A stretch of DNA of 64,000 nt from Chthoniobacterales bacterium (GTDB lineage Bacteria; Verrucomicrobiota; Verrucomicrobiia; Chthoniobacterales; UBA10450): NCBI GenBank assembly GCA_038237435.1, contig JBBRYT010000001.1, forward strand, positions 152,656 through 216,655. Direction: 5' to 3'. The notes under the pieces were generated by a model. It had not been told where the DNA came from and made no database searches. It saw nothing but the letters and a program-made list of their open reading frames with translations. Below are positions 6,422 through 59,819 of the stretch, piece by piece. A program made the translations under genes and the position numbers. The number at the start of each line of letters is the position of its first letter. Within the stretch, counting starts at the first letter, position 1.

Positions 6422-6431
6422 ACTTGCCCCC

Positions 6432-6845: not shown

Positions 6846-6856
6846 ACGAGTAGTTT

Positions 6857-8473: not shown

Positions 8474-8516
8474 GCGGCACGTCTATGGTTCGCGCTCACT
8501 TTCGCACGGAGCATTT

Positions 8517-8672
8517 ATGTCACAGCATCGCAGTCTCAAAGGGGCCAGCACCATCACGGCCAAACGAAATGTTCTGAAGCGTTTCGAGCGCGTCGAGCTT
8601 TTGAAGAAGCGCGGGCAGTGGAAGGACGGCGGCAAAGTCATGGGCCTGCCCAAGACCAAGCCGGACGCCTAA
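8517..8672 (+). CDS. small basic protein (51 aa), below the ORF-track length cutoff
   Basis: ATG 8517 to TAA 8670-8672 encodes MSQHRSLKGASTITAKRNVLKRFERVELLKKRGQWKDGGKVMGLPKTKPDA. It resembles the small basic protein family I recall as conserved in PVC-group bacteria. It ends 3 nt before the rluB-like start. Confidence 0.55.
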   Translation: MSQHRSLKGASTITAKRNVLKRFERVELLKKRGQWKDGGKVMGLPKTKPDA

Positions 8673-8675
8673 TAC

Positions 8676-9464
8676 TTGCGCCTCAATCGCTATCTCGCGG
8701 CGGCCGGCGTCGGTTCGCGGCGGCATTGCGATGAATTAATCGCGGCCGGTCGGGTGACGATCAACGGTCGCGTCTGCACCGACTTCAGCACGCAGCCTAA
8801 CGAGACTGATCACGTCAAGGTTGGCAGCAAAATGGTCCGACGGGAACGCCGGCTCGACATCATGCTGCACAAACCGGCGGGATTTGTTTCGACTCGCACC
8901 GACCCGAACGCGCGCGATACGATTTTCGATTTGTTGCCGCCGCATTTCCCGCGGCTCTTCAACGTGGGCCGACTCGACGCGCAAAGCGAAGGGCTGTTAA
9001 TTCTGACGAACAACGGCGATCTCGCGCAGCAGCTAACGCATCCGCGTTTCAAGATCGACAAGGATTACGAAGTGACGCTCGACAAACCTTGGGATCCGGA
9101 AAACGCGCCGAAACTGCTCCGCGGCATCATGCTCGATGGGAAGCGCGCGAAGCTGGAGCGCATTCAACAACTGACGACGATCAAATTGCGCGTGATCTTG
9201 CGGCAGGGAATTAACCGGCAAATCCGCCGGATGTTTTACGATGTTGGCTACGAAGTGGAAAAACTGATCCGCACGCGCGTGGGAAATTTGCGCTTGGGAG
9301 ATTTGCCGCGCGGGCATTGGCGTCCCCTAACGACTGCTGAATTGCATTCGCTCTCTACTCCACCTCGGTCCGCAAAATCTCGAGGGGCGGAGTCGTCCCG
9401 ATCCCGCGGCTCGTCAGCAAACCGATCACGACCGTCAACCCGCTCACGGCCGCGACCGCAATAA
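8676..9464 (+). CDS. rluB: pseudouridine synthase, RsuA/RluB family, with an Arg/Ser/Pro-rich C-terminal tail
   Basis: TTG start. S4 domain (RLNRYLAAAGVGSRR) plus catalytic GRLDAQSEGLLILTN motif. Confidence 0.85.
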   Translation: MRLNRYLAAAGVGSRRHCDELIAAGRVTINGRVCTDFSTQPNETDHVKVGSKMVRRERRLDIMLHKPAGFVSTRTDPNARDTIFDLLPPHFPRLFNVGRLDAQSEGLLILTNNGDLAQQLTHPRFKIDKDYEVTLDKPWDPENAPKLLRGIMLDGKRAKLERIQQLTTIKLRVILRQGINRQIRRMFYDVGYEVEKLIRTRVGNLRLGDLPRGHWRPLTTAELHSLSTPPRSAKSRGAESSRSRGSSANRSRPSTRSRPRPQ

Positions 9465-11883
9465 GCAGGGGCCAAAACGACGGCGCGTAATCGAGTTTGA
9501 AAACGAAGCGCGCCAGTGCCCAACTCGAGGCGAGTGCGAGCACAATGGCCGTCGCACTCGCGAGCAAACCGAGTGCGAAATATTCCGCGCAAAGAATCTG
9601 GTAAATCTGCGCGCGCGATGCGCCGAGCGTGCGCAGCAGCACACTTTCCTTCAATCGCTGATAACGTCCGCTCCAGATTGTGCTCCCGAGTACGATTAAC
9701 CCCGCCGCGAGGGTGTAGAGCGAAATCAAACGAATGACGAGCGCGACTTTGCCCAGGATGGAATCCACCGTTTGAATCACGGTGGTGAGATCAATGGCGG
9801 AGACGTTTGAGAATTTAGCTACCACCGCGTTCTGTAATCGCGCGGAAGCCGCCGGATCGGGCACGCGACTGACGAGCACGTTAAAGGTCGGCGCCGACTC
9901 GAGCACGCCGACCGGAAAGACGACAAAGAAGTTCGTCTGAAATCTTTTCCAATCGATGTCGCGCAAACTTGCGATGCGAGTCTTGAGCGGCACGCCCTGC
10001 ACATCGAAGACAAGTTCGTCGCCGATTTTCGCTTTCCAGTCGTCGGCCAGTTCCTTGTCGAGCGAGACCGGAACCACATCGCCAGGTTTGTACGCAACGC
10101 GCCCGATCCACTGGCCCGCGATAATTTTTTCGGTCTCGGCCAGCACCTCGCGAAAAGTCGAACGATATTCGCGCTGCAGTTCCCACTCCGGAATTTTGTT
10201 TTGCTTGTCGGCCACCAGATCACTCGTTAGGCGATCTTTGATTTGCGTGAGCCGCATCGTGACGACCGGAGCCTGCTGGATGATCGGCAGGCCTAACGAG
10301 CGTACGATTTCCGTCACGCCGGTGGTTTGGTCGGGTTGAATGTCGAAGAGAAAAATGTTCGGCTGATCGTTCGCCCCGATCGATTTGAACTGCGCGAGCA
10401 ACACTTCGCGGGTCAGATAAAGATTAAGGAGCAGGAACGTGCCGAGCCCGAGCGAAATCGTGAGCAGCAAGGTGCGGTTGTTCGGCCGATAGAGATTCGC
10501 GAGACCCTGGCGCAGCGCAAAACTCCAGCCGTGCGGGAAAAATTTTCGCACGAGCACGATAAGTAACTTCGCCACACCGATGAAAATCAAAATGGCGAGG
10601 CCGAGCGCAGCGGCGAAGATCAGGCCGCGTAGCCATTGGTCGCTTTGCTCGATACCGAACGCCGTCACGCTCGCCGCGATCAGCAGGTAAATTACAATTA
10701 CCGCGCGATCGCGGCGCGGCCGTTCCTGTTCGACATGCGCGCGCAAAACAATCAGCGGCGACAATCGGCGGAATCGCAGCAGCGCCGGCAACGCGAACAG
10801 GATGCAAATTCCCAGACCGATGAACATGCCGCGCAAAATCGGAAGCCACGCCAGCGTCGTTGCAATCGGCAAGGGCATGAATGATTTCAAGAGCCTCGGC
10901 AACGTAATTTGCATCACGATCCCCAGCGCCGCGCCGGCCAGCGCGCCGACAAACCCCATCGCAGCCGCTTGCAACACGTAAACGAAAGCCGTGCCGCGCG
11001 CCGAGGCGCCGAGACAACGCAGGATCGCGCCGGTCTTTTGTTTTTGCTGGAGATGCGCGGCGATCGCACTGGCCACACCGACCGCGCCGAGCAGCAGGGC
11101 AACGAAACCGACCAGATTCAAAAAACGGTAAAGATTGTCCAGCGAGTTGCCGAGATCGCGTTTCTGTTTCGCGACGGTGTCGTAGTCGAGGCCGAACTTC
11201 TGAATCTGCGGAACGAGTAACGCGATGCGTTTCTCCGCGTCGGTGCCGGCCGCGAACTTAATGTAATCGCGATAGCGCACGACGCTGCCGGGCTTAAGCA
11301 AATTCGTGGCCGCTAAATCCTGCAACGGAATGTAAACGCTCGGTGTGAACGACGTGGCCGCGGAACCCTCCCCGGGTATTTTCTTCAACGCACCGGCGAT
11401 GATGAAATCGACGTCACCGATCTTCACATGATCGCCGGGCTTCGCGCCGAATTGAATGAGCAGGCTTTCTTTAACGACCACGCCACCGCCCTGGCGAAAA
11501 TCGCGCGCCGCGTTTAACGGATCAGTTTCCATCGTTCCGTAAAATGGAAAATCGCCCGCGAGTGCGCGCACCGCCGTGAGCCGTGTGCCTTTCGCGAATG
11601 TGGCCATGGTAGAAAAACGAACTTCGCGGGCCTGCGGTTCGCCTAACGAGTGCAAGAACGCCTCTTCTTCCGGCGTAAAAGCGCGGCGTGAAACGATAAT
11701 CAGATCCGCGCCAACCAACGTGCGCGCCTGGTCATCGATCGCTTGCGCGAGTGTGATGCGAAACGAGCCGATGCTGACCAGCGCCGCGATACCGAGCGTA
11801 ATCGAAATCGAAAAAGCGAGCAGCCGTCGCCGGCTCGAACGGCTGTCGCGCCACGCCATTTTCCAAATGAAGGACGGATGCAT
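9355..11883 (-). CDS. FtsX-family ABC transporter permease (YbbP-like, duplicated MacB/FtsX module)
   Basis: 842 aa. Two FtsX-type 4-TM modules with large extracytoplasmic loops. Immediately downstream of the ATPase, as in the ybbA-ybbP arrangement. Confidence 0.85.
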   Translation of the reverse strand: MHPSFIWKMAWRDSRSSRRRLLAFSISITLGIAALVSIGSFRITLAQAIDDQARTLVGADLIIVSRRAFTPEEEAFLHSLGEPQAREVRFSTMATFAKGTRLTAVRALAGDFPFYGTMETDPLNAARDFRQGGGVVVKESLLIQFGAKPGDHVKIGDVDFIIAGALKKIPGEGSAATSFTPSVYIPLQDLAATNLLKPGSVVRYRDYIKFAAGTDAEKRIALLVPQIQKFGLDYDTVAKQKRDLGNSLDNLYRFLNLVGFVALLLGAVGVASAIAAHLQQKQKTGAILRCLGASARGTAFVYVLQAAAMGFVGALAGAALGIVMQITLPRLLKSFMPLPIATTLAWLPILRGMFIGLGICILFALPALLRFRRLSPLIVLRAHVEQERPRRDRAVIVIYLLIAASVTAFGIEQSDQWLRGLIFAAALGLAILIFIGVAKLLIVLVRKFFPHGWSFALRQGLANLYRPNNRTLLLTISLGLGTFLLLNLYLTREVLLAQFKSIGANDQPNIFLFDIQPDQTTGVTEIVRSLGLPIIQQAPVVTMRLTQIKDRLTSDLVADKQNKIPEWELQREYRSTFREVLAETEKIIAGQWIGRVAYKPGDVVPVSLDKELADDWKAKIGDELVFDVQGVPLKTRIASLRDIDWKRFQTNFFVVFPVGVLESAPTFNVLVSRVPDPAASARLQNAVVAKFSNVSAIDLTTVIQTVDSILGKVALVIRLISLYTLAAGLIVLGSTIWSGRYQRLKESVLLRTLGASRAQIYQILCAEYFALGLLASATAIVLALASSWALARFVFKLDYAPSFWPLLIAVAAVSGLTVVIGLLTSRGIGTTPPLEILRTEVE

Positions 11884-33806: not shown

Positions 33807-33822
33807 AGCAAAACCAGTGCCA
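33807..33822 (-). promoter_or_regulatory. candidate sigma-54 (-24/-12) promoter
   Basis: The minus strand reads TGGCAC-TGGTT-TTGCT, a full match to TGGCAC-N5-TTGCW. It ends 14 nt upstream of ATG 33793. Confidence 0.45.
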
Positions 33823-47306: not shown

Positions 47307-47379
47307 GGTGGCCATAGCTCAATGGTAGAGCTCCAGATTGTGATTCTGGCTGTTGCGGGTTCGAGTCCCGTTGGCCACC
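47307..47379 (+). tRNA. tRNA-His (GTG) with encoded G-1
   Basis: GGTGGCCA acceptor including the extra 5' G. Anticodon loop TTGTGAT. T-arm GGTTCGAGTCC. No encoded CCA. Confidence 0.9.
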
Positions 47380-47400
47380 CGCCTCCTGTCTGCCGTAAAA

Positions 47401-48398: not shown

Positions 48399-48472
48399 GT
48401 GCCTGTAGCTCAACCGGATAGAGCTTCTGACTTCGGATCAGAAGGTTGGGGGTTCGAATCCCTCCAGGCACG
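48399..48472 (+). tRNA. tRNA-Arg (TCG)
   Basis: Acceptor GTGCCTG/CAGGCAC. Anticodon loop CTTCGGA. T-arm GGTTCGAATCC. Confidence 0.9.
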
Positions 48473-49708: not shown

Positions 49709-50438
49709 AAGCATGGACGAACGACGCGTCATCGTGAACGCTGATGATTTCGGATTAAGCGACGGAATCAACCGCGGAATTATCGAGGCGCACGAGACTG
49801 GGATTGTAACCAGCGCGAGCTTGATGGTTCGTTACCCAGCCGCACGGGAGGCTGCAGAGCTCGCGAAGACGAATCCGAAACTTAGCGTGGGCTTGCATTT
49901 CGATGTGGCAGAATGGCGTTATCGAAATGGAAATTGGAAAGTATTCTATCAAGTCATAGACGCCAAAGACGCCGCGGCGGTGGAAGTCGAATTGCAGCGG
50001 CAGCTCGCGCTATTTCAAGGTCTGATGAATCGCGCGCCGACTCATCTCGATTCACACCAGCACGTTCACAAGTCCGAGCCCGCGCGTACGATTCTGCTGT
50101 GCGCGGCCGCAAAATTGCGAATACCGCTGCGCGCTTGCGGCTCATTAGTCAGACATTGCGGAGATTTTTATGGTCAGACCGCTGCGGGTCAGTCATTTCC
50201 GAGCGGTATTTCTACATCGCGGCTAGGCGAGATGATCAAACGCATCGAACCCGGCTGGACAGAAATCGGATGTCACCCCGGTTACGCGGATAAGCTGGAC
50301 TCCGTTTATCTAATCGAACGCGAAATTGAGCTTCGTGTTTTGTGTAGCGCCGAGATTCGGCGCACGGTGAGAGAAAATGAAATTGACCTGGTCTCGTTTC
50401 GAGACTTGGCCGAAAGATTACGCGCCTCCAGTTGTTAG
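49701..50438 (+). CDS. ChbG/YdjC/HpnK-family carbohydrate deacetylase
   Basis: VIVNADDFGLSDGINRGIIEAHETGIVTSASLMV. Confidence 0.8.
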   Translation: MRESMDERRVIVNADDFGLSDGINRGIIEAHETGIVTSASLMVRYPAAREAAELAKTNPKLSVGLHFDVAEWRYRNGNWKVFYQVIDAKDAAAVEVELQRQLALFQGLMNRAPTHLDSHQHVHKSEPARTILLCAAAKLRIPLRACGSLVRHCGDFYGQTAAGQSFPSGISTSRLGEMIKRIEPGWTEIGCHPGYADKLDSVYLIEREIELRVLCSAEIRRTVRENEIDLVSFRDLAERLRASSC

Positions 50439-50453
50439 GCTGGAGACGCGTAA
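50418..50453. terminator. 13-bp interrupted hairpin between convergent genes
   Basis: TTACGCG-C-CTCCAG / loop TTGTTAGG / CTGGAG-A-CGCGTAA. The ydjC-like stop TAG (50436-50438) lies in the loop. Confidence 0.45.
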
Positions 50454-50461
50454 CGCTGCAG

Positions 50462-50585
50462 ATTAGTTTAGGAGGGTCTTACTCCCGCGTCTAAGTCCAC
50501 CTTTAGCATCCTTGCGCGGCTTTAAGTCCTTCATCTTCACCTGCGACTTCTTCGCGCTTTTCGTGCTTTTCTTTTGAGTTGGCAT
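50462..50585 (-). pseudogene. third small GG-motif peptide gene, broken by a 1-nt frameshift
   Basis: ATG 50585 gives MPTQKKSTKSAKKSQVKMKDLK, then stops at 50504-50502. Skipping one base after the A4 run (plus-strand T4, 50520-50523) continues PRKDAKGGLRRGSKTLLN-stop. That restores the motif shared with the two upstream peptides. Confidence 0.35.
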
Positions 50586-50652
50586 TTTTTCGTTGGGTTG
50601 GTTGTGCTCTGCTCGCATGGCGGGATCGGACCACCACGCGAGCCAGAGTCAA

Positions 50653-50844
50653 TTAGTCGTTCGTGACCGTCTTGTCGGTGTTGACGGTGCCGCCACTCGG
50701 ACTCGTGGTCCGGTCCAGCCCCCCGCTCGAGTCTTGATTGATCCGACCGCCGCCGCCCTTGGCGTCTTTTTTCGGGCTCAAATCTTGAATCTTGACGCCC
50801 GGTTTCTTTTCGTTGCCTTCAGTACCTTCTTTGTTTTGTGACAT
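50653..50844 (-). CDS. small Lys/Gly-rich peptide with a DLSPKKDAKGG motif (candidate double-glycine exported peptide)
   Basis: 63 aa: MSQNKEGTEGNEKKPGVKIQDLSPKKDAKGG-GGRINQDSSGGLDRTTSPSGGTVNTDKTVTND. Starts 2 nt after the preceding peptide gene. Confidence 0.55.
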   Translation of the reverse strand: MSQNKEGTEGNEKKPGVKIQDLSPKKDAKGGGGRINQDSSGGLDRTTSPSGGTVNTDKTVTND

Positions 50845-50846
50845 GA

Positions 50847-51035
50847 CTAGTTATTTCCTTTACTTGGGTTGTTTGTTTCGGTGTCCGAGGATCCGAAATA
50901 GAATTTGATACCACCACGCACGTTCTGCTTTGGAATTAGATCGTCCAAGCGGATCAATTTTTCTTTCTTACCTCCAGGCTTTTGATTTTTGTTATCTCCA
51001 GCTTGCGCACCTTTGTTTTGTTTTGATGCACTCAC
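50847..51035 (-). CDS. small Lys/Gly-rich peptide with a DLIPKQNVRGG motif (candidate double-glycine exported peptide)
   Basis: 62 aa with a GTG start preceded by AGGAG: MSASKQNKGAQAGDNKNQKPGGKKEKLIRLDDLIPKQNVRGG-IKFYFGSSDTETNNPSKGNN. Confidence 0.55.
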   Translation of the reverse strand: MSASKQNKGAQAGDNKNQKPGGKKEKLIRLDDLIPKQNVRGGIKFYFGSSDTETNNPSKGNN

Positions 51036-51203
51036 CTTGCCGCTCCTATTATCATCCTTCGTGCCAGCGTTGAAAAATGCGCGTGGGCGGCAAAGAACTA
51101 CTCGTTAGGCCGCGTCCAATCTGCCTATGGATCAAGGCTTTGCGCATCTGAAAAGATTTGGACCCGAAACGCGAGGGCGCCTTTTGACTCGACACCGAGT
51201 GGA

Positions 51204-52235
51204 TCATTTCGAGTCCTTCTCTGGATCCAAAATAGAGCCGTTGGCCTCGAAATGAGACACATTCTGCAAATAACGGACTAGGGTCGAACGCGAAATGCCC
51301 AGAAGCTTCGCCGTCAGGCGTTGATTACGATTGGCGCGAGCAAAAACAAACTGCACATGACGCGTCAAGGCGGACGACAGCGATAGATCCTGCCCGTTTG
51401 CGTCGCCCACTACTTCTGGCGTTTTCGTGTCGGCAGTACGCCTGGTCGATTCCGGGAGATCGGCCGAGAAGATCACGTTCTCCGGCAAAATTACTCCGCC
51501 TTCACAAAAAAGCGTCATGGTGTGCACGGTGTGACTCAGCTCACGTAAGTTTCCGCGCCAGTCGTGCGCCAGCAATCGCGCCATCGCTTCCGGATGAATG
51601 GCCCTGATCTTTTTTCCTTCCCGCGCCGCGGAAGCCTTTAGTTCCGTGGCGATCAAGGCCGGCAATTCCTCCAGCCGCTCACGCAACGGCGGAATCAAAA
51701 GAGTGACGCCGTTGAGTCGATGAAAAAGATCCTCTCGAAATTTTCCGTCGGCCACGCGCTGACGCAGCGAGCAATTGGCCGCGCAAATAATTCGCACATC
51801 GCAGCGCAACATTCGTTCGGAACCAAGCCTTTCGAATTCGCCATACTCCAGTGCGCGCAAAATTTTTACCTGCGCCAGTGCGCTCATCTCGGAAATTTCG
51901 TCAAGAAAAAGCGTACCGCTGTGCGCCAGCTCGAATTTTCCTTTCACGGCCTGCTGCGCACCGGTGAATGCGCCCCGCTCATGACCAAACAACTGACTTT
52001 CCAACAACGTGTCGCTCATCGCCGAAGCGTTGAAGGAAACGAAGGGCCGCCCTGCACGCAGGGATGAATTATGAATCGCGTGCGCCAGCAACGTTTTGCC
52101 CGTGCCCGTTTCCCCGAGGAGCACTACCGGCACGTCGGATTTGGATGCGACCGCGGCGAGCTGCAAACAACGCGCCATAGCGTCGGTGGTTGTGGTCAGG
52201 TCTTCGAGTTTCAAACCCGAAAGTGGCGCTTGCAT
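51204..52235 (-). CDS. sigma-54-dependent transcriptional activator lacking an N-terminal sensor/receiver domain
   Basis: 343 aa. The AAA+ domain begins about residue 25 (GETGTGKT, ERGAFTGA, LFLDEI). C-terminal Fis-type HTH (LLGISRSTLVRYL). Confidence 0.9.
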   Translation of the reverse strand: MQAPLSGLKLEDLTTTTDAMARCLQLAAVASKSDVPVVLLGETGTGKTLLAHAIHNSSLRAGRPFVSFNASAMSDTLLESQLFGHERGAFTGAQQAVKGKFELAHSGTLFLDEISEMSALAQVKILRALEYGEFERLGSERMLRCDVRIICAANCSLRQRVADGKFREDLFHRLNGVTLLIPPLRERLEELPALIATELKASAAREGKKIRAIHPEAMARLLAHDWRGNLRELSHTVHTMTLFCEGGVILPENVIFSADLPESTRRTADTKTPEVVGDANGQDLSLSSALTRHVQFVFARANRNQRLTAKLLGISRSTLVRYLQNVSHFEANGSILDPEKDSK

Positions 52236-52249
52236 TCGTTAGGCAGTCG

Positions 52250-53431
52250 TTAGTCGCGCGTATTCTCGCGCAATTGTCGGATCGGCTCGAAGGCGTATTC
52301 GATCATGGTACGACTACCCACCACGATGCGCGCTTCGCCTCGCATACCGACTCGCAGAGCCAGCGGCTTGGCGCGTTTGGCAGTGGCCTCGTCATCGATG
52401 GAAGCGAGGGCGACGAAACGCGGCCCTTCTGGCGCGGCCACGACCGAAGGACTAATCCAATCCAGACGGGCATTGACCACACCATAACGTTGATAGGGAT
52501 AAGCAGCGAAAAAGAACCGCACGCGTTGCCCGATGGAAAGCTTGGGGAGGCCCGCTTCGTTCAGCAGCAAACGCGCGCGCGGTTTGGAATCGAGCCGTGC
52601 CAACTGGCCAAGTTCCTGTCCGTTCTGTAGGACGCTCCCCGGATTTTTCTGCGCCAGTGAAATCACCACGGCATCATAAGGCGCGCGCAGTGTAAGCCGA
52701 TTTTGTTCGGTGTTTTCCAGGTCGCTTTTCAAGGCCGCAAGCCGGAATTTAATTTTCTCAATCTCAGCCAAATCCTGTCCACGTTGCCGCGCATGCTCCA
52801 TGTCGAGGCGCTGCCGGTCGAGAGTCACCTGCTGCAAACTGCGTTGCGCGACGCTGTAATCTTTTTCCGAGGCCGCGAGATCGAGCCTCATTCGTAAGAG
52901 CTCCACCTGCGAGATGCCGCCATTTTTCGACAGCTTGTCCATGCGGTCGACCAGTTCGGCGTTGGTCTTGGAGTGACGTTCGCGAAATTCTACTTCGCTT
53001 TTCGATTGCGCGATTTCGGCATCTTTGATTTCCATCTGCGCGCCAAAAGCGGACTCCGTCTTCTTTAGACTTTCTTCGCGCGTCCGTAGATCCTCCGCGA
53101 GTGTCAGATTCTGGGTATCGCGGTTGCGGATTTCATCCGATTGCAAAACGAACAACTCTTGCCCTTGCTTAACCGCGTCGCCTTCGCTGACCGAAACTTT
53201 GTGCAAAATCGCGAGTAACGGCGATTGGATCGGATCGGCACCTTCCCGCGGCACAAGCACAAAGGGCGCAGTTACATTTTCCGGCAGGTGAACCAGGCAG
53301 GCGGCCAGAATCCCGACGGCAAAAAATGCAATCAAGAGCCATCCGCTTGCCCTCATAATCCACGAGGGCGGGTCTTGCGGCAGCATTTCCGATTCTGTTT
53401 CGAAGGAACCGCGAACAGCCTGGGTTGCCAT
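52250..53431 (-). CDS. HlyD-family secretion adaptor protein
   Basis: 393 aa. N-terminal TM anchor, lipoyl-like and coiled-coil hairpin regions, and a C-terminal beta-barrel pattern. Confidence 0.85.
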   Translation of the reverse strand: MATQAVRGSFETESEMLPQDPPSWIMRASGWLLIAFFAVGILAACLVHLPENVTAPFVLVPREGADPIQSPLLAILHKVSVSEGDAVKQGQELFVLQSDEIRNRDTQNLTLAEDLRTREESLKKTESAFGAQMEIKDAEIAQSKSEVEFRERHSKTNAELVDRMDKLSKNGGISQVELLRMRLDLAASEKDYSVAQRSLQQVTLDRQRLDMEHARQRGQDLAEIEKIKFRLAALKSDLENTEQNRLTLRAPYDAVVISLAQKNPGSVLQNGQELGQLARLDSKPRARLLLNEAGLPKLSIGQRVRFFFAAYPYQRYGVVNARLDWISPSVVAAPEGPRFVALASIDDEATAKRAKPLALRVGMRGEARIVVGSRTMIEYAFEPIRQLRENTRD

Positions 53432-53437
53432 AATAGA

Positions 53438-56400
53438 TCAGATTCCGAGCTGCTGACTCGACAGGTAAAAATACAGGCCGCGCTGGGCCATGAGTTGATC
53501 GTGATTGCCGGTTTCCGCGACCATTCCCTTTTCCAAAACAACAATTGTATCCGCTTCGCGAATCGTGCTCAGTCGATGCGCGATCACGATCGTCGTCCGG
53601 CCCGCCATTAAACGGCCGAGATTATCCTGAATGGCACGCTCCGATTCAGTATCGAGGGCGCTCGTTGCCTCGTCGAAAATCAAGACGGGCGGGTTGTTGT
53701 AAATCGCGCGAGCGATGGCAACACGTTGTTTTTGTCCGCCAGAGAGCGAAAGACCAGATTCGCCGATCTTTGTTTCGTAACCCATCGGCAAACGCATGAT
53801 GAAATCGTGCGCGGCCGCGGTTTGCGCCGCCGTCAAAACCCGATCGAGATCCGGCTCCGCATCACCGAATGCGATGTTGCGTGCGATCGTTTCGTTAAAA
53901 ATGTGATTTTCCTGCAACACCATACCGATGTGCCGGCGAACATCGCGATAGTTGAGCGTTTTCAGATCGACATGATCGAACATGATCGTGCCTTCCGTCG
54001 GTTCGAGCAGACCCGCGATTAATTTTATCAGAGTGGTCTTACCGCAACCGCTTCGTCCGACTAATGCGACCATTCTGCCCGGCGCGAGATCGAGCGTGAT
54101 GTTACTCAAAATATTTGGCGCTTCCGGTCCGCCGTACTTGAAGCTGACCTTCTTCAACTCGATGCGGCCTTCGAGACTATGCACCGGCGCGAGGCGCGAA
54201 CGATCGCGGCCCTGCTCCGGATCCTGTTCGAAAATATCGTTCAGCCGGTTCAGCAACACCGAAGCAAACTGCATGTTGTCCCAGACGCCGAGCGTGCGCA
54301 GGATCCCGCCGTAAGCGAGCGCGGTCAGCGAACTGAAGGCGACGAATCCACCGACGCTGAGCGATCCGTTCATCACCTGATTCGCCCCCACCCAGAGGAA
54401 AATAGCGGTCGATAACATTCCGATCGTTTGCAGCACACTGTCATACGACATGACAATGAAACTGCTGCGGAAAATCTTCTGCGAAACGGCCAGAAATTCG
54501 TTCAGCATCGTGTCGCGGAAGACAGCTTCCGCCGACGCCGCCTTGACTGCTTCGATGCCTTTGATCGCGTCGATCTGATGTGAGCTGTACTTTCCCTGGC
54601 TCTCTTCCACGCTCGCAAAAAGCGGACGCAGGACCTTGAAAGAGAAATACATTAACCCCGCGTAGAGCGGCGTCGTGCAAAGAAACGCGAACATCAGCGA
54701 CGAGCTGTAGAGCGTCATTAAACAAAGCGAACCGACCAGCGTGACCAGTGCCAGCAACGCGCCGATGCCCTGACCGACAGCGAATTGCCGCACCTGCCGC
54801 GCGCCGTCGAGTCGGCGTTGAATGTCGCCGGTGCGTCGGCTGGTGAAATAAGTCATCGGCAACGAAAGTAATTGCCGGCTAAGAAAATCGAGGATGGAAG
54901 TGTCGAGTCGCACCGCAGCGAACGCCAATAAATATTGCTGAATCAGATTCGAAGCCTGCACGAAGAAAAGCGCGATCGCCATTCCCAGGAGAATCACTTT
55001 CAGCAGCCCGATATCGTGTTCGACGATGACCTTATCGACCACCATCTGCGTGAAGATGGGGAAGAGCATTTGCAAGAACGTCACTGCGACCGCGAGCAGC
55101 AACACTTGCAGCAGAGTCTTGCGGTGTTGTGTGAAGAACGGCAGCACCCACGCCAGTGATGGTTTGCTTTCCGGCGCCTGCTCGAAGGCGACCGTGTAAT
55201 CGAAGAGCGCAGCGTAGCCCGACCAATTCATTTCAAATTCCTTGCGCGGAATTTTCCGAATCCCGCGCGCCGGATCGGCCACACGCACGAACTTGTCGTT
55301 CACATCGAAGAGCACCATCCAATGGTTGCCTTCCCAATGAATGATCGCGGGCAACGGCATGGCCGGCAGATTGCGCAGCGAAATTTTCAGCGCGCGCGCC
55401 GCCAGGCCGAGTTCGGTGGCCGCGCGACACATCGCTTTCAAGCTCGTGCCATCAGTCGACGTGTGACAGAGCTGGCGAATTCTGGTCAGGCTAACTTTGC
55501 GTCCGAAATGACGGCAGATCATCCCAAGGCTGGCCGCGCCGCAATCCATCTCGTCGATCTGCGCGACATGCTCGAACTTACGGATGCGACGCGCGCGTTT
55601 TTTGAAAAGACCTTGCTCATCGGCAAACGGATCGGCACTGCCGTCGCGATCCGCCGGTTGGGCGGTTTCGTCGATCGCGACCTTGTTGTGCGCGCGCACT
55701 TCCGCAGGCAAAGTCTCTTCGCTGAAATCGAGCGGAACGCGCGCCTCCGTTTTCGCATGGTACTGAGCGAGCCTCTCGTCGAGCAGTTTGCTGAAATCCG
55801 GAAATTCCTTTTTCAGCTCCTGCACAGATTCGGGTGCAAGCGTAAGCAACCGGCAATCGGAAAATGCTTCCACCGAAGCGGCGCGGGGCGAACCGTTCAG
55901 AATGGAGAGCTCGCCGAAAAAATCGCCATCACGATAAAAGGCGAGATTCGTTTCGCGCCCATTGTTTCCGGCAAAGGCGCGGGCGCGTCCTTTCTCCAAA
56001 ATGTACATCGGCCCCGCGGCATCGCCCTGTCGGATAATGAGATCCCCTTTCGGGACTTCGATGGGCGAAAGTTTTTCCACCACGCTGCGCAACGCGGGCG
56101 TGGGCAACCGGCCGAAGTTACTGAACTCGTAAAGAAAGCCCTGTAGGGAGCGGTGGCGTTTGATCAGCTCGACCTCTTGTTTGATCTCGGGCACTTCCTC
56201 CGAGAGCGCGAGAAAATCAGAGCGATTCAATTTCAAAACCGTGACCGCCGTGCTGCAACGCACCATGGCATTGCGCGTGCCGCCTTCGCCGAGCGCCGCT
56301 TCGCCGAACACATCCCCGGGGCGCAAAGTTGCGAGCGCGATTTCCGTTCCGTTCTGGTCGGTCTTGATCGCGCGAGCGCGGCCTGAAAGCAGAACATAAA

Positions 56401-56551
56401 ACGAATCGGCGGGATCGTTTTGGTGCACGATCACGTCGCCAAATTCAAAATTCTCTTCCTTCAACAACGGGCGCAGACGGCCGAAATATTGCTCGGGCAA
56501 AAATCGAAACAGCGAAGTGCGCTGCAGAATTTCTTCGTCCTGCGTTCTCAT
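53438..56551 (-). CDS. peptidase-C39-containing ABC exporter with two N-terminal cyclic-nucleotide-binding domains
   Basis: Two cNMP-binding modules (FGEAAL...RNAMV, FGELSIL...RAASV). C39 domain with DEMDCGAASLGMI Cys and a downstream NHW His. Six-TM ABC core. Walker A GRSGCGKTT, LSGGQKQR, LIFDEATSALD. ATG 56551 forms an ATGA overlap with the upstream gene; the longer GTG 56581 start is possible. Confidence 0.9.
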   Translation of the reverse strand: MRTQDEEILQRTSLFRFLPEQYFGRLRPLLKEENFEFGDVIVHQNDPADSFYVLLSGRARAIKTDQNGTEIALATLRPGDVFGEAALGEGGTRNAMVRCSTAVTVLKLNRSDFLALSEEVPEIKQEVELIKRHRSLQGFLYEFSNFGRLPTPALRSVVEKLSPIEVPKGDLIIRQGDAAGPMYILEKGRARAFAGNNGRETNLAFYRDGDFFGELSILNGSPRAASVEAFSDCRLLTLAPESVQELKKEFPDFSKLLDERLAQYHAKTEARVPLDFSEETLPAEVRAHNKVAIDETAQPADRDGSADPFADEQGLFKKRARRIRKFEHVAQIDEMDCGAASLGMICRHFGRKVSLTRIRQLCHTSTDGTSLKAMCRAATELGLAARALKISLRNLPAMPLPAIIHWEGNHWMVLFDVNDKFVRVADPARGIRKIPRKEFEMNWSGYAALFDYTVAFEQAPESKPSLAWVLPFFTQHRKTLLQVLLLAVAVTFLQMLFPIFTQMVVDKVIVEHDIGLLKVILLGMAIALFFVQASNLIQQYLLAFAAVRLDTSILDFLSRQLLSLPMTYFTSRRTGDIQRRLDGARQVRQFAVGQGIGALLALVTLVGSLCLMTLYSSSLMFAFLCTTPLYAGLMYFSFKVLRPLFASVEESQGKYSSHQIDAIKGIEAVKAASAEAVFRDTMLNEFLAVSQKIFRSSFIVMSYDSVLQTIGMLSTAIFLWVGANQVMNGSLSVGGFVAFSSLTALAYGGILRTLGVWDNMQFASVLLNRLNDIFEQDPEQGRDRSRLAPVHSLEGRIELKKVSFKYGGPEAPNILSNITLDLAPGRMVALVGRSGCGKTTLIKLIAGLLEPTEGTIMFDHVDLKTLNYRDVRRHIGMVLQENHIFNETIARNIAFGDAEPDLDRVLTAAQTAAAHDFIMRLPMGYETKIGESGLSLSGGQKQRVAIARAIYNNPPVLIFDEATSALDTESERAIQDNLGRLMAGRTTIVIAHRLSTIREADTIVVLEKGMVAETGNHDQLMAQRGLYFYLSSQQLGI

Positions 56552-57513
56552 TCTGCGCCGTTTACCGGAGGAATACGCCACTGGATCCTGCCGGACGCGA
56601 GGTCGGCAAAATGGCGGGACAAAATTCTTTGATCGACGCGCTCACGCACTGCCGCGTCGTCCAGTTTCGGTTCGTTTTTTTGCAAGAGGCGCGTCAGCAC
56701 GAAACCGTCATCGCGCGCCGTCGGCTCGAGCAAGCTCCCCGGCGTGAGACTGAGAAATCGTTGCTGCATATCGTCGGGAATATTTTCCAACAACAGTTCC
56801 ATGCGACGAAAAGGATAGCGACCTTCGCGCGCCACTTCTTCCATCGACATACCATCGTCGCGCACGCACATGAAAGCTTCGCGGGCCGCATCGCGCGATT
56901 CCAGCTCGATCATCTCGACCGCGAAACGTGTCAGCGGCAATCGCACCGCGCCCAGCTCACGTTCGCGCGCTTCTTTCGTCAGGCGTTGTTCACAATGACT
57001 GCGGTAGGCAGCTTCCAAGTCCTCCAAATTTTCGTCGTCGGATGCCGCCACCCGCCAGGCAAAACGTTGCGCCATTCGGTCGAGTTCCCCCGATAAAACC
57101 AGATCCACCATGAAAAGATCGCGCTCCTCCTCATTCGCATCTTCAAAAGGAGTCGCGGGCGCTTCACCTCGTCCGGCGTAAATTTTCCCCCACTCGATCC
57201 GGGCAAAATATTCGCTGAAATCCGACAGAGTCAGTCCACGCGCCTCCAACCAGGCTTCTGTCTCTTCTGCGGTGATCAAGTCGTATTGGTAACGAAAAGC
57301 GATGGCCGCCTCATCGATAACCGACCCATCCAACTCAGTGTCTGATTCCTCACCCCGCGCAGCCGCTTCTTTGCGACGAAGAAATTCCTGCCAGAGCGGC
57401 GCGACCTCGCCGCGAAAATGCGCGGCTTCAATCAAATCGCGCACGGTATAATCCCGCGACCCGCGAGAAAAAACCGGACGGCTCTCCTTTAATACTGGCA
57501 CCGAACTCGCCAT
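56548..57513 (-). CDS. acidic hypothetical protein, first gene of the export cluster (possibly a parvulin/PpiC-like accessory protein)
   Basis: 321 aa. The C-terminal half (ESRDAAREAFMCVRDDGMSMEEVAREG ... GFVLTRLL) loosely resembles rotamase-like domains. This is an impression only. Confidence 0.5.
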   Translation of the reverse strand: MASSVPVLKESRPVFSRGSRDYTVRDLIEAAHFRGEVAPLWQEFLRRKEAAARGEESDTELDGSVIDEAAIAFRYQYDLITAEETEAWLEARGLTLSDFSEYFARIEWGKIYAGRGEAPATPFEDANEEERDLFMVDLVLSGELDRMAQRFAWRVAASDDENLEDLEAAYRSHCEQRLTKEARERELGAVRLPLTRFAVEMIELESRDAAREAFMCVRDDGMSMEEVAREGRYPFRRMELLLENIPDDMQQRFLSLTPGSLLEPTARDDGFVLTRLLQKNEPKLDDAAVRERVDQRILSRHFADLASGRIQWRIPPVNGAE

Positions 57514-57616
57514 GAGGTGCGCTTTATAATAGAAAGACCAGAATAAGTCGAGATACCATCTCCCTAGCCGTCAATGCGCGAACGGTTTGGCCAAACGGCC
57601 AGCTTTTTTCGGACCT

Positions 57617-58120
57617 CTATTCTTTCGCGCCGAGATCGCCGGCGTAGCGCATTTCATTCGTCATCAAGAACCCGAGGCGCTCGTAAAGTTTTCGGCCTTC
57701 ATCAGATGCGTGAAGAACCAAGCGATCCAGCCGCTCGCTTTCCGCCCACGTGATAATTTCGCGCATGAGCGCTTGGCCGACTCCGCGACGACGCCATTCC
57801 TGCTCAGTGAAAACGTTAATGACGATGGCGTGCCGACCTTCAGCGATGGCCACTTCGCCATTCGTTTTCTTGAATGGGTGAGGTGAAACGCGCCGCAGTT
57901 GAACTCCCGCACCGCCGATCACCTCGCCAACGGCAGTCGCCAGCCAACCAACATATTCTCCGCTGCGAAATCCGTTGGTGAGCCATGTTTCAGCACTGGT
58001 GCGAAAGTCTTCGTAGAGGGCTGGTGGAACTTGCCCCATGTCACGAAACATTCCGGCGCGATGCGCTGCGATAATTCCGGCGTCAGCCATCGTGGCGCAA
58101 CGGAGGACAAACTCCTTCAC
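57617..58120 (-). CDS. GNAT family N-acetyltransferase
   Basis: 167 aa. QEWRRRGVGQALM acetyl-CoA binding motif. Confidence 0.8.
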   Translation of the reverse strand: MKEFVLRCATMADAGIIAAHRAGMFRDMGQVPPALYEDFRTSAETWLTNGFRSGEYVGWLATAVGEVIGGAGVQLRRVSPHPFKKTNGEVAIAEGRHAIVINVFTEQEWRRRGVGQALMREIITWAESERLDRLVLHASDEGRKLYERLGFLMTNEMRYAGDLGAKE

Positions 58121-58812
58121 GGCAACATTTGATCAATCGCCGCCTCGCAATGAAGACGCGTCGTATTGAGAAATGGAATTCCGTGGTGAGCTTCGTCGCG
58201 CAAGATGAGTGGCAGTTCGGTGCCACCCAAAACAACGGCATCGATCTGCGCGTTTTCTTTGAGGCGATCGACGATCGCGAGCAAGCGCGCACGGGTTTCC
58301 GGCAAGAAAACGCCATTAATTAATTCGTTCATGTACTTATCGTGAATGAATTCCTGTTCGCCTGAGTCGGGCAGGATCACTTCGATCCCAACGCGCGAAA
58401 AAACGTCGCGATAAAAACGCGCACGCATGGTGAAACCCGCGCCGAATAGACCGATGCGTTTGAGGCCGCGCCGCTTCGCTTCGACCGCGGTCACTTTAAC
58501 GATGCTGATCAGTGGAATCGGTGAAACGCGTTCCAACTCGTCGAACACCAGATGAGGCGTATTCGACGCCAGCAACGCGAAATCCGCGCCGGCCCGATGA
58601 AGTTTCTCGATTTCCGGCGACAGGAATTGGACCAAGCCTGGCAAGTCGTTGGCTTCGACCAAACCAATCTGCCGCTGCAGATTGATGCTGTTGATGAAGA
58701 GCGGCGGATACCCGGCGGTTGGTTGACGTTTGCGAAAAATTTCGATGAGCGTGCGGTAATAATCGATGGTCGATTCCGGGCCGACACCGCCGATGATGCC
58801 GAGATTTTTCAT
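58117..58812 (-). CDS. aspartate/glutamate racemase family protein
   Basis: From ATG 58812: MKNLGIIGGVGPESTIDYY, with a second half-site in LGGTELPL. ATGA overlaps on both sides. Confidence 0.85.
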   Translation of the reverse strand: MKNLGIIGGVGPESTIDYYRTLIEIFRKRQPTAGYPPLFINSINLQRQIGLVEANDLPGLVQFLSPEIEKLHRAGADFALLASNTPHLVFDELERVSPIPLISIVKVTAVEAKRRGLKRIGLFGAGFTMRARFYRDVFSRVGIEVILPDSGEQEFIHDKYMNELINGVFLPETRARLLAIVDRLKENAQIDAVVLGGTELPLILRDEAHHGIPFLNTTRLHCEAAIDQMLP

Positions 58813-59321
58813 GTCGCAGGCGCGTCGATTTGAAAAACGATGTTGTCGCGCTCCGACGCGTTCAAGCGCGTTCCCACGCGCACTCCGCCGATTTTTTCCA
58901 TGGCTTTTTGCGACCGCCAATTCTCCGGGCCGACCAGAAAGACCACGTGCCGCACGAATTGAAAAGCGTGGCGCAACAACAGGTCTTTCATTTCGCGGTT
59001 GCAAACTCCGCCCCAGTACGACCGGGCGAGAAAGGTGAAACCAATTTCGATTTCACTCTTCTCTTCGTCGTAACCGAGGAAGCGGGTCGATCCGATCACG
59101 CGATCGTCCTTGGCATCGAGAATGACAAAAGCGCCGCCCGAGTCCATCGCGCCACGAAAATATTCGCGGAAGACTTTTTCCTGATAACGATCCGGCACGG
59201 GATGCTGTTCCCAAATGAGCGGATCAGCGGCGACCGCGAAGAGCGCATCCCAATCTTCTGTGCGCAACGGCCGCAGCCACAAAAGTTCACCACGCAAAGT
59301 AGGTTGAAGATCAAACGGCAT
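58809..59321 (-). CDS. GNAT family N-acetyltransferase (RimJ/RimL-like)
   Basis: 170 aa with the Acetyltransf_3-like pattern LRPLRTEDWDALF. Confidence 0.8.
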   Translation of the reverse strand: MPFDLQPTLRGELLWLRPLRTEDWDALFAVAADPLIWEQHPVPDRYQEKVFREYFRGAMDSGGAFVILDAKDDRVIGSTRFLGYDEEKSEIEIGFTFLARSYWGGVCNREMKDLLLRHAFQFVRHVVFLVGPENWRSQKAMEKIGGVRVGTRLNASERDNIVFQIDAPAT

Positions 59322-59327
59322 AAAATT

Positions 59328-59819
59328 CTAGAGCAGCAATTGCAGATAAGTGACGTCCAGCCAGCGATCGAACTTCCGGCCGATCTCGCGAAATGTTCCG
59401 ACGCGAACGAACCCTAACGACTCGTGCAAAGCGATGCTCGCCGTCGATTCTGTGCAACACCCAGCCACTAGTACGTGGTGACCAATTTTTCGCGCGCGCT
59501 CGATTAAATCCGAAAGAAGCGCGCGTCCAATTCCGCGCCGATGAAAATCCGGATGCAGATAAACCGAAACATCCGAGCTGTGACGATAACCGCCGCGCGG
59601 ATTATGTGGCGAGAGAGCGCCCCAGCCGATCAGTTCACCGTCGCTTTCCACGGCGACCGCAGGATGTTTTTCGGAACGCTGCTCGAACCAGGCCACGCGC
59701 TCGGTCAGCGTCTGCGGCTCGGTGATGAAAGTCGAAGTGGTGTAGGCAATGTAATGATTGAGCAACTCTGTCATGGCCGGCGAGTCGTCTTTGTTGGCGA
59801 GTCGGAGCAAGAAAGTCAT
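59328..59819 (-). CDS. GNAT acetyltransferase, phosphinothricin/methionine-sulfoximine N-acetyltransferase-like
   Basis: 163 aa. [16 protein letters not shown] ... [27 protein letters not shown]. Confidence 0.8.

Follow-up and report, generated by a model that had tools for sequence, protein, structure and literature searches.

The DNA analysed here is a stretch of 64,000 nucleotides from a Chthoniobacterales bacterium (contig JBBRYT010000001.1, positions 152,656 to 216,655; hereafter the window). On its minus strand it carries a compact cassette of seven co-oriented genes, which we interpret as a system for the processing and export of double-glycine (GG) peptides. A previous sequence-only reading had called seven open reading frames (ORFs) in this region, and all seven were confirmed on the minus strand at the positions that it had given. 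In the direction of transcription, they encode an acidic accessory protein (acc), an ATP-binding cassette (ABC) transporter combining tandem cyclic-nucleotide-binding (CNB)-type domains with a C39 peptidase, a HlyD-family adaptor, a sigma-54 bacterial enhancer-binding protein (bEBP), and three small peptides (pep1 to pep3). The junctions from acc to pep3 are an ATGA overlap followed by spacings of 6, 14, 168, 2, and about 67 nt, the 168-nt gap separating the four large genes from the peptide genes (Table 1).

Table 1. Genes, protein domains, and putative signals of the cassette (positions are those of the window)
Feature	Position	Strand	Description
acc, PrsA/SurA-like accessory protein	56548..57513	-	321 aa, acidic (net -22), modelled parvulin-like domain
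ABC transporter, HetC-type, peptidase-containing	53438..56551	-	1037 aa from the probable ATG at 56551
Tandem CNB-type domains	55796..56455	-	CNB1 about 56201-56455, CNB2 about 55796-56104; from Pfam and alignment
C39 peptidase domain	55199..55576	-	Q341, C347, H420, D436 (1047-aa numbering)
Six-transmembrane (six-TM) ABC core and ATPase	53660..55105	-	Core 54317-55105, ATPase 53660-54109; Walker A GRSGCGKTT, LSGGQ, Walker B IFDE
HlyD-family periplasmic adaptor	52250..53431	-	393 aa; Pfam HlyD_3 and HlyD_D23
Sensor-less sigma-54 bEBP	51204..52235	-	343 aa; AAA+ with GAFTGA, lid, C-terminal Fis-type helix-turn-helix (HTH)
pep1, type A precursor	50847..51035	-	62 aa, GTG start; predicted 42-aa basic leader ...KEKLIRLDDLIPKQNVRGG, core IKFYFGSSDTETNNPSKGNN
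pep2, type B1 precursor	50653..50844	-	63 aa; predicted leader MSQNKEGTEGNEKKPGVKIQDLSPKKDAKGG, hydrophilic low-complexity core
pep3, type B2 precursor	50463..50585	-	40 aa from MPTQKK; predicted leader ...VKMKDLKPRKDAKGG, core LRRGSKTLLN
Putative sigma-70-like promoter of operon 1	57523..57551	-	TCGACT (57551-57546), 17-nt spacer, TATAAA (57528-57523)
-24/-12-like element	51051..51066	-	TGGCACGAAGGATGAT; then AGGAG (51047-51043) and the pep1 GTG (51035)
Terminator-like hairpin	50421..50450	-	CGCGTCTCCAG-N8-CTGGAGGCGCG after pep3, between convergent genes

The cassette is real and self-contained, its synteny and the placement of its motifs being far beyond chance. A scan of species-representative genomes returned 238 stretches with a relative of acc, and the best 80 of these 238 were analysed, all of them labelled as Verrucomicrobiota, Chthoniobacterales, Spartobacteria, or Candidatus Udaeobacter metagenome-assembled genomes (MAGs). 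The four large genes stand in the single order acc-ABC-HlyD-bEBP in all 57 related loci long enough to hold them, with protein identities to the window of 76 to 97% for the ABC transporter, 55 to 97% for HlyD, 66 to 96% for the bEBP, and 44 to 93% for acc. Fifty-five loci reach far enough to include the peptide genes, and 52 of them carry genes with GG leaders downstream of the bEBP gene. The sequence-only reading had made its case depend on the small ORFs being conserved beside homologous exporters; they are conserved in these 52 loci, and similar GG peptides also accompany distant exporters, as described below. Conservation is confined to the cassette, with flanking genes that vary between loci (49 loci compared), and across the whole order the cassette behaves as a stable core locus, not as a patchy accessory element. 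Two MAGs each hold two separate whole cassettes (L007 and L008 in JALZAD01; L055 and L073 in JBBPZS01), so some species carry paralogous systems. Five loci from Microflora Danica MAGs (L002, L022, L028, L044, and L076) have their exporter and adaptor genes in several tblastn pieces, and pep2 of L002 carries a 1-nt insertion; both features are probably long-read homopolymer errors, not pseudogenes.

Within the ABC protein, Pfam recognised cNMP_binding in two stretches (E 1.9e-45), Peptidase_C39 (6e-36), ABC_membrane (1.4e-39), and ABC_tran (5e-37), which upholds the domain order that had been proposed from the sequence, namely two cNMP-binding domains, the C39 peptidase, a six-TM core, and an ATPase. 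The nearest NCBIfam models were TIGR03796, TIGR01846, and TIGR01193, all matched below their curated cut-offs; the best of them, TIGR03796 (NHLP/NHLM exporter equivalog), scored 542 bits against a cut-off of 853, which leaves the protein outside that family. Translation more likely starts at M11 than at an alternative GTG at 56581 (1047 aa), because the ATG at M11 forms the ATGA overlap with the acc stop codon and because the alignments of homologues begin at residues 9 to 11. The catalytic Cys and His of C39, earlier judged intact, do align, together with Q341 and D436, with the corresponding residues of LahT150 (6mpz), PCAT1 (4ry2), and ComA. The catalytic residues are retained in 37 of 38 family members; of the motifs, QIDEMDCGAASL is conserved in 37 members and WEGNHW in all 38. 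With the C39 Q/C/H/D residues, a six-TM core, complete nucleotide-binding domain motifs, and adjacent GG-leader cargo, the protein is a peptidase-containing ABC transporter (PCAT), and we infer that its C39 domain cleaves the leaders after GG.

N-terminal to the peptidase, the CNB region can be aligned to PKG and the PKA R subunit over their own tandem CNB domains. Both phosphate-binding cassettes of the window protein (FGEAALGEGGTRNA and FGELSILNGSPRAA) keep FGE and the Arg, but where R-[ST]-A would be expected they have R-N-A and R-A-A; some homologues carry RTA or RSA at this place. Gating of the exporter by a cyclic nucleotide is a putative trait. A cyclic-nucleotide link is favoured by the cyclase, phosphodiesterase, and Crp genes beside distant relatives of the exporter, which are the best evidence obtained here for a response of the CNB domains to cyclic nucleotides.

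The adaptor gene called earlier was recognised as such by HlyD_3 (1.8e-14) and HlyD_D23, with a match to TIGR01843 (7.8e-40, 137 bits) that lies under the cut-off, and it supplies the membrane fusion protein that a tripartite exporter requires, as in CvaAB-TolC. For the activator, Sigma54_activat begins at residue 15 (E 1.9e-61) and is followed by AAA_lid_14 and a weak HTH_8 (E 0.0016), GHERGAFTGA is present in the translation, and Pfam found no N-terminal sensor domain, in agreement with the earlier description of a bEBP made only of AAA+ and HTH domains. Moreover, there is no room for a sensor domain, since homologues start 7 to 35 nt from the HlyD stop codon. PspF and HrpR/HrpS likewise consist of AAA+ with GAFTGA plus an HTH and have no regulatory N-domain. 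This architecture implies that the protein is either constitutively active or under the control of a partner, the latter being known for PspF/PspA and HrpS/HrpV. Unlike PspF and HrpS, the window bEBP has no identified anti-activator, and its target would be the peptide-cargo operon. Our literature search returned no paper tying sigma-54 activators to GG-peptide exporters.

Pfam had no match on acc, and TIGR04500 matched it weakly (36 bits against a cut-off of 180), so that acc is only distantly related to this family and stands outside it. Its homologues number more than 1177, every named one being from Chthoniobacterales or Verrucomicrobiota. An AlphaFold2 model of acc (pLDDT 90.9, from a 27-sequence alignment) retrieved PrsA, SurA, and PEB4/Cj1289 over the full length with Foldseek (E 3e-6 to 1e-4) and isolated parvulin domains at a TM-score of about 0.6, and the N-terminal half of acc is homologous to PCAT-linked Pfam rotamases (hhalign E 1.6e-7 and 6.8e-5). 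As modelled, acc folds like the PrsA/SurA chaperones and has a parvulin-like domain. It is presumably cytoplasmic, because no signal-peptide-like hydrophobic N-terminus was seen (MASSVPVLKESRPVF..., judged by eye without a predictor), and prolyl isomerase activity is doubtful, because no His is invariant in the parvulin-like region of the acc alignment (A1). The net charge of the family ranges from -11 to -45, and the leaders of the peptides carry +4 to +5 and an invariant Pro. This pairing of an acidic protein with basic, Pro-containing leaders suggests that acc may be a leader-binding chaperone. The window acc and its two closest relatives are without an internal segment of ~40 residues (A1 columns about 165 to 207), which is contained in most homologues (355 to 365 aa).

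Among known proteins, acc can be compared with TIGR04500/MirC, as both are annotated as rotamases, are SurA-like, are encoded beside a PCAT in a peptide locus, and have a FRY..DLITAEETE.WL motif region in common. MirC is the obligate SurA-like partner of an ATP-grasp enzyme, and a PCAT is likewise encoded in the rosaritide (graspetide) cluster (PMC13097080); proteins of TIGR04500 are known partners in graspetide clusters (PMC8939145). The two proteins differ in that MirC's C-domain is reportedly without similarity to peptidyl-prolyl isomerases (PMC13097080), whereas the acc model has a parvulin-like domain, and in that the ATP-grasp partner present with MirC is absent from the window cassette, no ATP-grasp gene having been found in or near it.

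The sequence-only reading had described the small genes as encoding three GG-motif peptides, hydrophilic and Cys-free, without modification or immunity genes, and each part of this description held. Their leaders share the form hydrophobic-x-hydrophobic-x-D-L-x-P-x(4-6)-GG. A six-frame scan for this leader motif in the 80 loci (about 1.3 Mb) and in the 64-kb window returned matches only directly 3' of the bEBP gene, bar one spurious match. Neither Pfam nor NCBIfam matched pep1 to pep3. Two types of precursor are distinguished: type A was found in 50 of the 55 loci and type B in 48, with one to three type B precursors per unit. In L015, L026, and L066, the four large genes are kept and the peptide genes are unrecognisable, L026 retaining the first codons of type A only.

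Type A precursors have a 42-aa basic leader ending in KEKLIRLDDLIPKGNVSGG and a core RQLLFGATDINQTTNKRKR, the conserved core being a 19-residue peptide (RQLLFGATDINQT...). At codon positions one to three, the entropy of the N-terminal leader is 0.77, 0.81, and 1.27, and that of the motif 0.47, 0.25, and 1.13; this variation, heaviest at third positions, indicates that the whole ORF is translated. A type A profile search returned at least 1867 database clusters, all called 'hypothetical' and none with a Pfam domain, the named ones belonging to the same phylum.

Type B precursors comprise type B1, with the leader consensus M..KKKEVKVRDLKPSKDAKGG, and type B2, with a longer basic leader and a short basic core. 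The B2 precursor pep3, whose ORF is open from 50618, has a net charge of +12 and probably starts at MPTQKK, because its homologues begin with MPT.KK. The peptide cores are cationic, rich in Gly, Ser, Asn, Gln, and Thr, and about 22 to 24% hydrophobic. Those of type B are 10 to 45 residues long (Gly 21%, Ala 11%, Ser 11%, Asn 10%, and Arg 10%), with a mean net charge of about +3 and one Cys among 52 B1 cores. A repeated 4-mer occurs in 60% of type B cores versus 13% of shuffled controls (e.g., QHGPT x3-4, AGRTT x4-5, or GGSSLDK x3), and repeat copy number varies even among close relatives (L055 and L075). A PatS/HetN-like RGSGR motif was looked for in type B cores and ruled out (0 of 62).

The type B cores diverge far faster than their surroundings. 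In 42 pairs of loci with bEBP 3' regions 80 to 97% identical, DNA identity averages 0.60 for the type B cores, whereas the leaders of both types, the type A core, and the bEBP 3' end average 0.81 to 0.84. The window and L002 are about 97% identical as far as the GG codons of pep2; from there identity collapses, to recover after the stop codon, and pep3 shows the same pattern. Throughout these changes, the peptide reading frame survives indels across loci.

Upstream of acc, the TATAAA box of the window stands 9 nt before the ATG, the two boxes being a consensus match only and their promoter function putative. Boxes resembling TCGACA-N17-TAnnAT are found 9 to 16 nt before the acc ATG in most loci, and a CTCGAC-like box followed by a TAnnAT-like box precedes acc in 60 of 78 loci versus about 21% expected (estimated from pattern frequency). 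At the other end of this putative unit, a GC-rich hairpin and then a T-run follow the bEBP stop codon in many loci. The terminator-like hairpin after pep3 is conserved in L002 and L003.

Between these two units, the -24/-12-like element is the sole intergenic block kept at 80% or more. Its consensus, TGGCAYGRATNRTGNTWAWAGG (TGGCAYG-N4-xTGxT), was found in about 47 of 49 loci, with the GTG start codon about 6 nt further on, and the spacing of its GG and TG is exactly that of a sigma-54 -24/-12 promoter. Four distant relatives without a bEBP gene show no such element upstream of their peptide genes, and in L061, whose bEBP gene has decayed, the element is degenerate. Resembling a sigma-54 promoter in these respects, it may control the peptide genes. 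Taken by itself, the pep1 site of the window departs from the sigma-54 consensus at two positions and is one of 26 matches, no more than in shuffled sequence, so that the element is meaningful only through its conservation across loci. A sigma-70 extended -10 reading of the same DNA (TTTTCA-17-GATAAT in the window) was set aside because the -35 box and key -10 positions vary across loci. An inverted-repeat search of the 168-nt gap for upstream activator sites returned nothing convincing. In L061 (L013 is listed alongside it), the bEBP gene, the -24 element, and the GG site of type A are all degenerate, and one type B gene persists.

Elsewhere in the window, a perfect sigma-54 consensus (TGGCACTGGTTTTGCT) lies at 33807-33822 on the minus strand, with about 0.06 expected by chance (estimate). 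An ORF with a signal peptide (MRRCFITLGLMFSLVAAQTSFA...) has its ATG 15 nt after the -12 C of that site, implying a nearly leaderless transcript with the same geometry as pep1. In 1.35 Mb, only three perfect sites were found, the distance from the -12 C to the start codon being 15, 20, and 28 nt, and very short 5' untranslated regions may be normal in this lineage.

To place the exporter among its distant relatives, the first 460 residues (CNB-CNB-C39) of the window ABC protein were compared with 1.84 billion representative proteins, and 395 proteins were retrieved at E <= 1e-30. Many of these CNB-PCAT matches are 1010 to 1075 aa long and align over nearly the full query with 27 to 52% identity. 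Names among them include 'peptidase domain-containing ABC transporter' and 'ABC-type bacteriocin/lantibiotic exporter with double-glycine peptidase domain/CRP-like...'. Deltaproteobacteria or Thermodesulfobacteriota MAGs are the source of some. Related exporters are also borne by chromids of Burkholderia stagnalis and Caballeronia (L092) and by Skermanella plasmids (L091), and cyanobacteria gave partial matches, two of them annotated 'cyclic nucleotide-regulated ABC bacteriocin/lantibiotic exporter'; our literature search found nothing on 'cyclic nucleotide-regulated ABC' exporters.

Among the distant loci with DNA, an accessory-like or rotamase gene adjoins the CNB-PCAT gene in five of eight and lies within about 1 kb in two more. 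The gene directly upstream is an acc homologue in L081 (E 1e-29 to the window acc) and in L082 (E 1e-12), an unannotated candidate accessory gene of 344 aa in L083/84 and of 318 aa in L087, and an unannotated gene of 356 aa beside the relative P0254. A rotamase gene lies directly downstream in L090, and a SurA_N_3/Rotamase gene about 1 kb away in L089. GG peptides with a DLP, DLxP, or related acidic motif occur in four of these loci: a 47-aa peptide in L082 (...LEDLEPEPGDAENVKGG then SSQDSDSSGSGGKGGSS), a 50-aa peptide in L083/84 (...DEDLEIDSDTAENVNGG then FAFFEIKTVDG...), an 83-aa peptide in L085/86 (KIKIEDLP...EIFGG, with a core of (GTTQLPGS)n repeats), and a 63-aa peptide in L090 (IAIKDLPKK...EIKGG). 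In L088, both an accessory-like gene and a GG peptide were missing. Second-messenger genes stand beside several of these exporters, namely a class III cyclase in L082, a Crp regulator in L083/84, and, in L085/86 (L085 1-15138), a Crp-family regulator, PDEase_II, and a class III cyclase together with a HlyD-like gene and a PpiC-type rotamase. A HlyD gene is present in some of the distant loci. No sigma-54 activator was found in them, and the sigma-54 circuit was seen only in Chthoniobacterales, suggesting that the older shared core consists of the CNB-PCAT and a rotamase-like accessory protein, usually with a GG peptide.

Several details of these loci deserve mention. PDEase_II of L085 and L086 is a class II cAMP phosphodiesterase, and the whole set there amounts to complete cyclic-nucleotide signalling around a peptide exporter. 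In L082, at about 6790-6810, a palindrome resembling a Crp/Fnr operator (TGTCAC-GGGC-GTGACA) lies upstream of the 47-aa peptide gene at 6891 and precedes the peptide, accessory, and exporter genes, the class III cyclase gene adjoining; the presence of a sortase gene close by suggests that the host is monoderm. In L089, a putative 119-aa ORF (3669-4028, plus strand) made almost entirely of 7-residue repeats (VRKASQA/V...) lies about 2 kb upstream of the CNB-PCAT gene. On the chromid of the cultured Burkholderia stagnalis (L092, 1162-9946), ORFs for a NodT-like lipoprotein, a HlyD-like protein, an accessory-like protein (250 aa, 6104-6856), and a CNB-PCAT (1023 aa, 6875-9946) stand in a row, their roles being judged from N-terminal sequences only; this Burkholderia locus may offer a genetically tractable model.

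The architecture of the exporter has a characterised precedent in HetC of Nostoc/Anabaena sp. PCC 7120. HetC is an active cysteine protease whose peptidase residues, ATPase residue, and cNMP region are required in vivo (PMC10986499). Compared by published description, HetC and the window protein both have about 1040 aa, with a cNMP-type domain N-terminal to a competent C39 peptidase, a six-TM core, and an ATPase, and the catalytic Cys, His, and Walker-B Glu of the window protein lie within about 10 residues of C347, H420, and E970 of HetC. The cNMP region of HetC bound ppGpp (Kd 59 uM) and GTP in vitro. Despite years of work on HetC-type exporters in heterocyst development, no substrate is known, in the case of HetC because hetC has no GG-leader gene in its vicinity; the working model is an exported signal, with an N-terminal fragment that may act on a transcription factor (PMC10986499). 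HetC has no adjacent adaptor gene and no nearby GG peptide, whereas in the window cassette the adaptor (HlyD), the rotamase-like accessory protein, the sigma-54 activator, and the cargo are all encoded together with the exporter.

A second precedent is PteB of Synechococcus elongatus PCC 7942, described with a HetC-like domain organisation, which secretes four co-transcribed GG-motif proteins, EbfG1-4, and thereby enables biofilm formation, their secretion depending on the C39 Cys (PMC4997328). As in the window cassette, several small GG-motif proteins stand beside a C39 exporter, and the EbfG products are non-antibiotic. Mature EbfG proteins, in contrast, are of 6 to 7 kDa and are not reported as tandem-repeat, and neither a bEBP nor a rotamase-like accessory protein is described there (PMC4997328). 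PCATs of the PCAT1, LahT, ComA, and CvaB types have the C39 Q/C/H/D residues and the ABC core in common with the window exporter (4ry2, 6mpz, 8hf4), for which cleavage after GG, as in those transporters, is predicted; the window exporter alone has an extra 330-residue tandem CNB module and, in place of the canonical amphipathic leader pattern, DLxP leaders with Pro at -8. A survey of cyanobacterial bacteriocins makes no mention of cNMP domains or repeat cores (PMC3140520), and our literature search returned no paper on the verrucomicrobial cassette. The sequence-only reading had considered the combination at this locus functionally uncharacterised; this is not so for the cNMP-C39-ABC architecture, given HetC (PMC10986499) and the similar PteB (PMC4997328), whereas the linked combination is new. 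To the HetC-type PCAT, the cassette adds as new features a linked cargo class, a leader motif, a cytoplasmic PrsA/SurA-like accessory protein, and a sigma-54 circuit.

Altogether, we propose that the locus, with its two transcription units, is a HetC-type cassette for processing and exporting peptides, with a non-bacteriocin cargo and with control by sigma-54 and by nucleotide gating, a reading to which we give a probability of roughly 70%. The export mechanism as such is well supported by the anatomy of the genes and by comparative genomics. The model would run as follows: (i) the first unit, from the sigma-70-like promoter, would produce acc, the CNB-PCAT, the HlyD adaptor, and the sensor-less activator; (ii) the activator, made together with the exporter, would switch on the sigma-54-type promoter before the peptide genes, with the consequence that cargo would be made only when the export machinery is present; (iii) this second unit would provide the cargo, one type A precursor and one to three type B precursors; (iv) the acidic acc would bind the basic, proline-containing leaders and present them to the C39 domain; (v) C39, whose catalytic residues are seen intact, would cut after GG; (vi) the ABC core and HlyD, with an outer-membrane channel encoded elsewhere, would expel the hydrophilic cores of 10 to 45 residues; and (vii) a nucleotide at the tandem CNB domains, cAMP or cGMP, or (p)ppGpp/GTP as for HetC, would gate the exporter. 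The interpretation of the sequence-only reading is supported overall, with caveats on architecture, gating, and sigma-54 control.

Nevertheless, a number of observations weigh against this proposal. Three of the 55 loci are without the peptide genes. The leaders have Pro at -8 and hydrophobic residues at -4, -10, -13, and -15; in the canonical GG leader, hydrophobic residues stand at -4, -7, -12, and -15. The leaders of L082 and L083 are acidic and stand beside an acidic accessory protein, so charge complementarity between leader and acc is not universal. An outer-membrane factor (TolC/NodT) is absent from the cassette and from the ten nearest flanking genes scanned; it may be encoded elsewhere in the genome. 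For sigma-54 control, the -12 C of the element is replaced by A, G, or T across loci, the predicted transcription start lies only 4 to 6 nt before the GTG and downstream of the conserved AGGAG, and rpoN (RpoN box) was not seen in the DNA examined, which is less than a whole genome. For gating, the Ser/Thr after the Arg is missing from both CNB cassettes of the window, and HetC did not bind cAMP (PMC10986499).

As to the exported peptides, they are more likely extracellular non-antibiotic products than classical bacteriocins, and by analogy they may condition the matrix or the cell surface, as in EbfG/PteB, or serve as strain-specific signals. The repetitive, low-complexity cores suggest that composition, and not the exact sequence, is under constraint, in keeping with matrix or surface roles like those of EbfG. 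The conserved core of type A implies a conserved partner, and the role of type A would be that of a conserved partner or signal.

A peptide pheromone for quorum sensing or kin recognition, in which the type B peptides would be strain pherotypes, type A a common signal, and the receptors encoded elsewhere, is the first alternative to be considered, and we regard it as unlikely. The combination of a constant leader and a hypervariable core does resemble the ComC/AgrD pherotypes, and the cassette has a dedicated regulator, just as the working model of HetC invokes an exported signal. However, no histidine kinase or other receptor travels with the cassette, the bEBP has no sensory domain, and low-complexity tandem repeats of varying copy number are unlike known specific peptide ligands.

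Slightly less probable is a class II microcin or bacteriocin locus, with antibacterial cores, a hypervariability due to an arms race, and an immunity gene that is elsewhere or unnecessary. The GG leader, PCAT, and HlyD are the standard route of such peptides (compare the TIGR01193 and TIGR03796 matches), the type B cores are hypervariable beside conserved leaders, and some class II microcins are Gly/Ser-rich. Yet no conserved immunity or modification gene, nor any other conserved neighbour, was found beside the cassette in 49 loci or in the scanned window flanks, the cores are hydrophilic, low-complexity repeats nearly free of Cys, and the cassette is stable across the order, all of which argues against a classical bacteriocin; the conserved type A core is likewise unfit for an arms race. 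A RiPP biosynthetic cluster is not indicated either, no modification enzyme being conserved beside the cassette.

Intracellular regulation, in which the released basic leader would modulate the bEBP and the exported core would be a by-product, appears very improbable. It would account for a type A leader that is unusually long (42 aa), conserved, and translated, and for the need of a sensor-less bEBP for some controlling partner, and the HetC paper does propose an N-terminal fragment acting on a transcription factor. The idea is speculative, however, conservation extends to the type A core and so implies that the core has a function too, and relatives devoid of the bEBP keep similar peptides. 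Finally, it is hardly credible that the small ORFs arose by chance or belong to an untranslated RNA, with the real substrate encoded elsewhere, for although they are short, without Pfam or NCBIfam match, and labelled only 'hypothetical protein', their position, frame, and leader are conserved in 52 of 55 loci with third codon positions varying most, their frame is kept despite indels, type A alone forms 1867 clusters, Rfam had no match across 50300-57800, and the peptide ORFs are called as genes in public data.

Returning to the export cassette with its non-antibiotic cargo, its interest lies first in this cargo, which is unusual in joining a conserved 19-residue peptide to hypervariable cationic repeats, with no modification or immunity genes. 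Since the cargo is linked to the exporter, it gives a testable leader rule, DL(x)P...GG, as well as candidate accessory factors for HetC-type exporters. The cassette is a core feature of Chthoniobacterales, including Candidatus Udaeobacter MAGs. Bacteria of this type are among the most abundant and least culturable in soil, and to our knowledge almost nothing is known of what they secrete. That cyclase, phosphodiesterase, and Crp genes stand beside distant relatives suggests that second messengers are directly linked to peptide secretion. A wider and decidedly tentative hypothesis could be that the cassette is the best-preserved case of a widespread and so far unrecognised class of secretion modules under nucleotide second-messenger control, each made up of a CNB-PCAT, a cytoplasmic parvulin/SurA-like chaperone of the leaders, and GG peptides with a (hydrophobic-x-hydrophobic-x)DL(x)P leader motif; the cargo would typically be intrinsically disordered, rapidly evolving tandem-repeat peptides that form a strain-specific surface, matrix, or recognition layer outside the cell. 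If true, the cargo class and the leader rule would identify the substrates of HetC-type exporters in cyanobacteria, and dominant soil Verrucomicrobia, including Candidatus Udaeobacter, would place such secretion under sigma-54 control.

Around the cassette, the flanking genes of the window encode three GNAT acetyltransferases, a racemase, a pyridoxal phosphate enzyme, an EamA transporter, a YdjC-like protein, a fatty-acid desaturase, and a tetratricopeptide repeat protein. The three GNAT genes and the Asp/Glu racemase gene lie directly upstream of the cassette (57617-59819, minus strand) and are probably unrelated to it, because they are common only to the closest relatives. Two tRNA genes, for tRNA-His(GTG) at 47308-47380 and tRNA-Arg(TCG) at 48399-48472, both on the plus strand, lie 2 to 3 kb downstream of the cassette, and the long ORFs that run across both of them are spurious.

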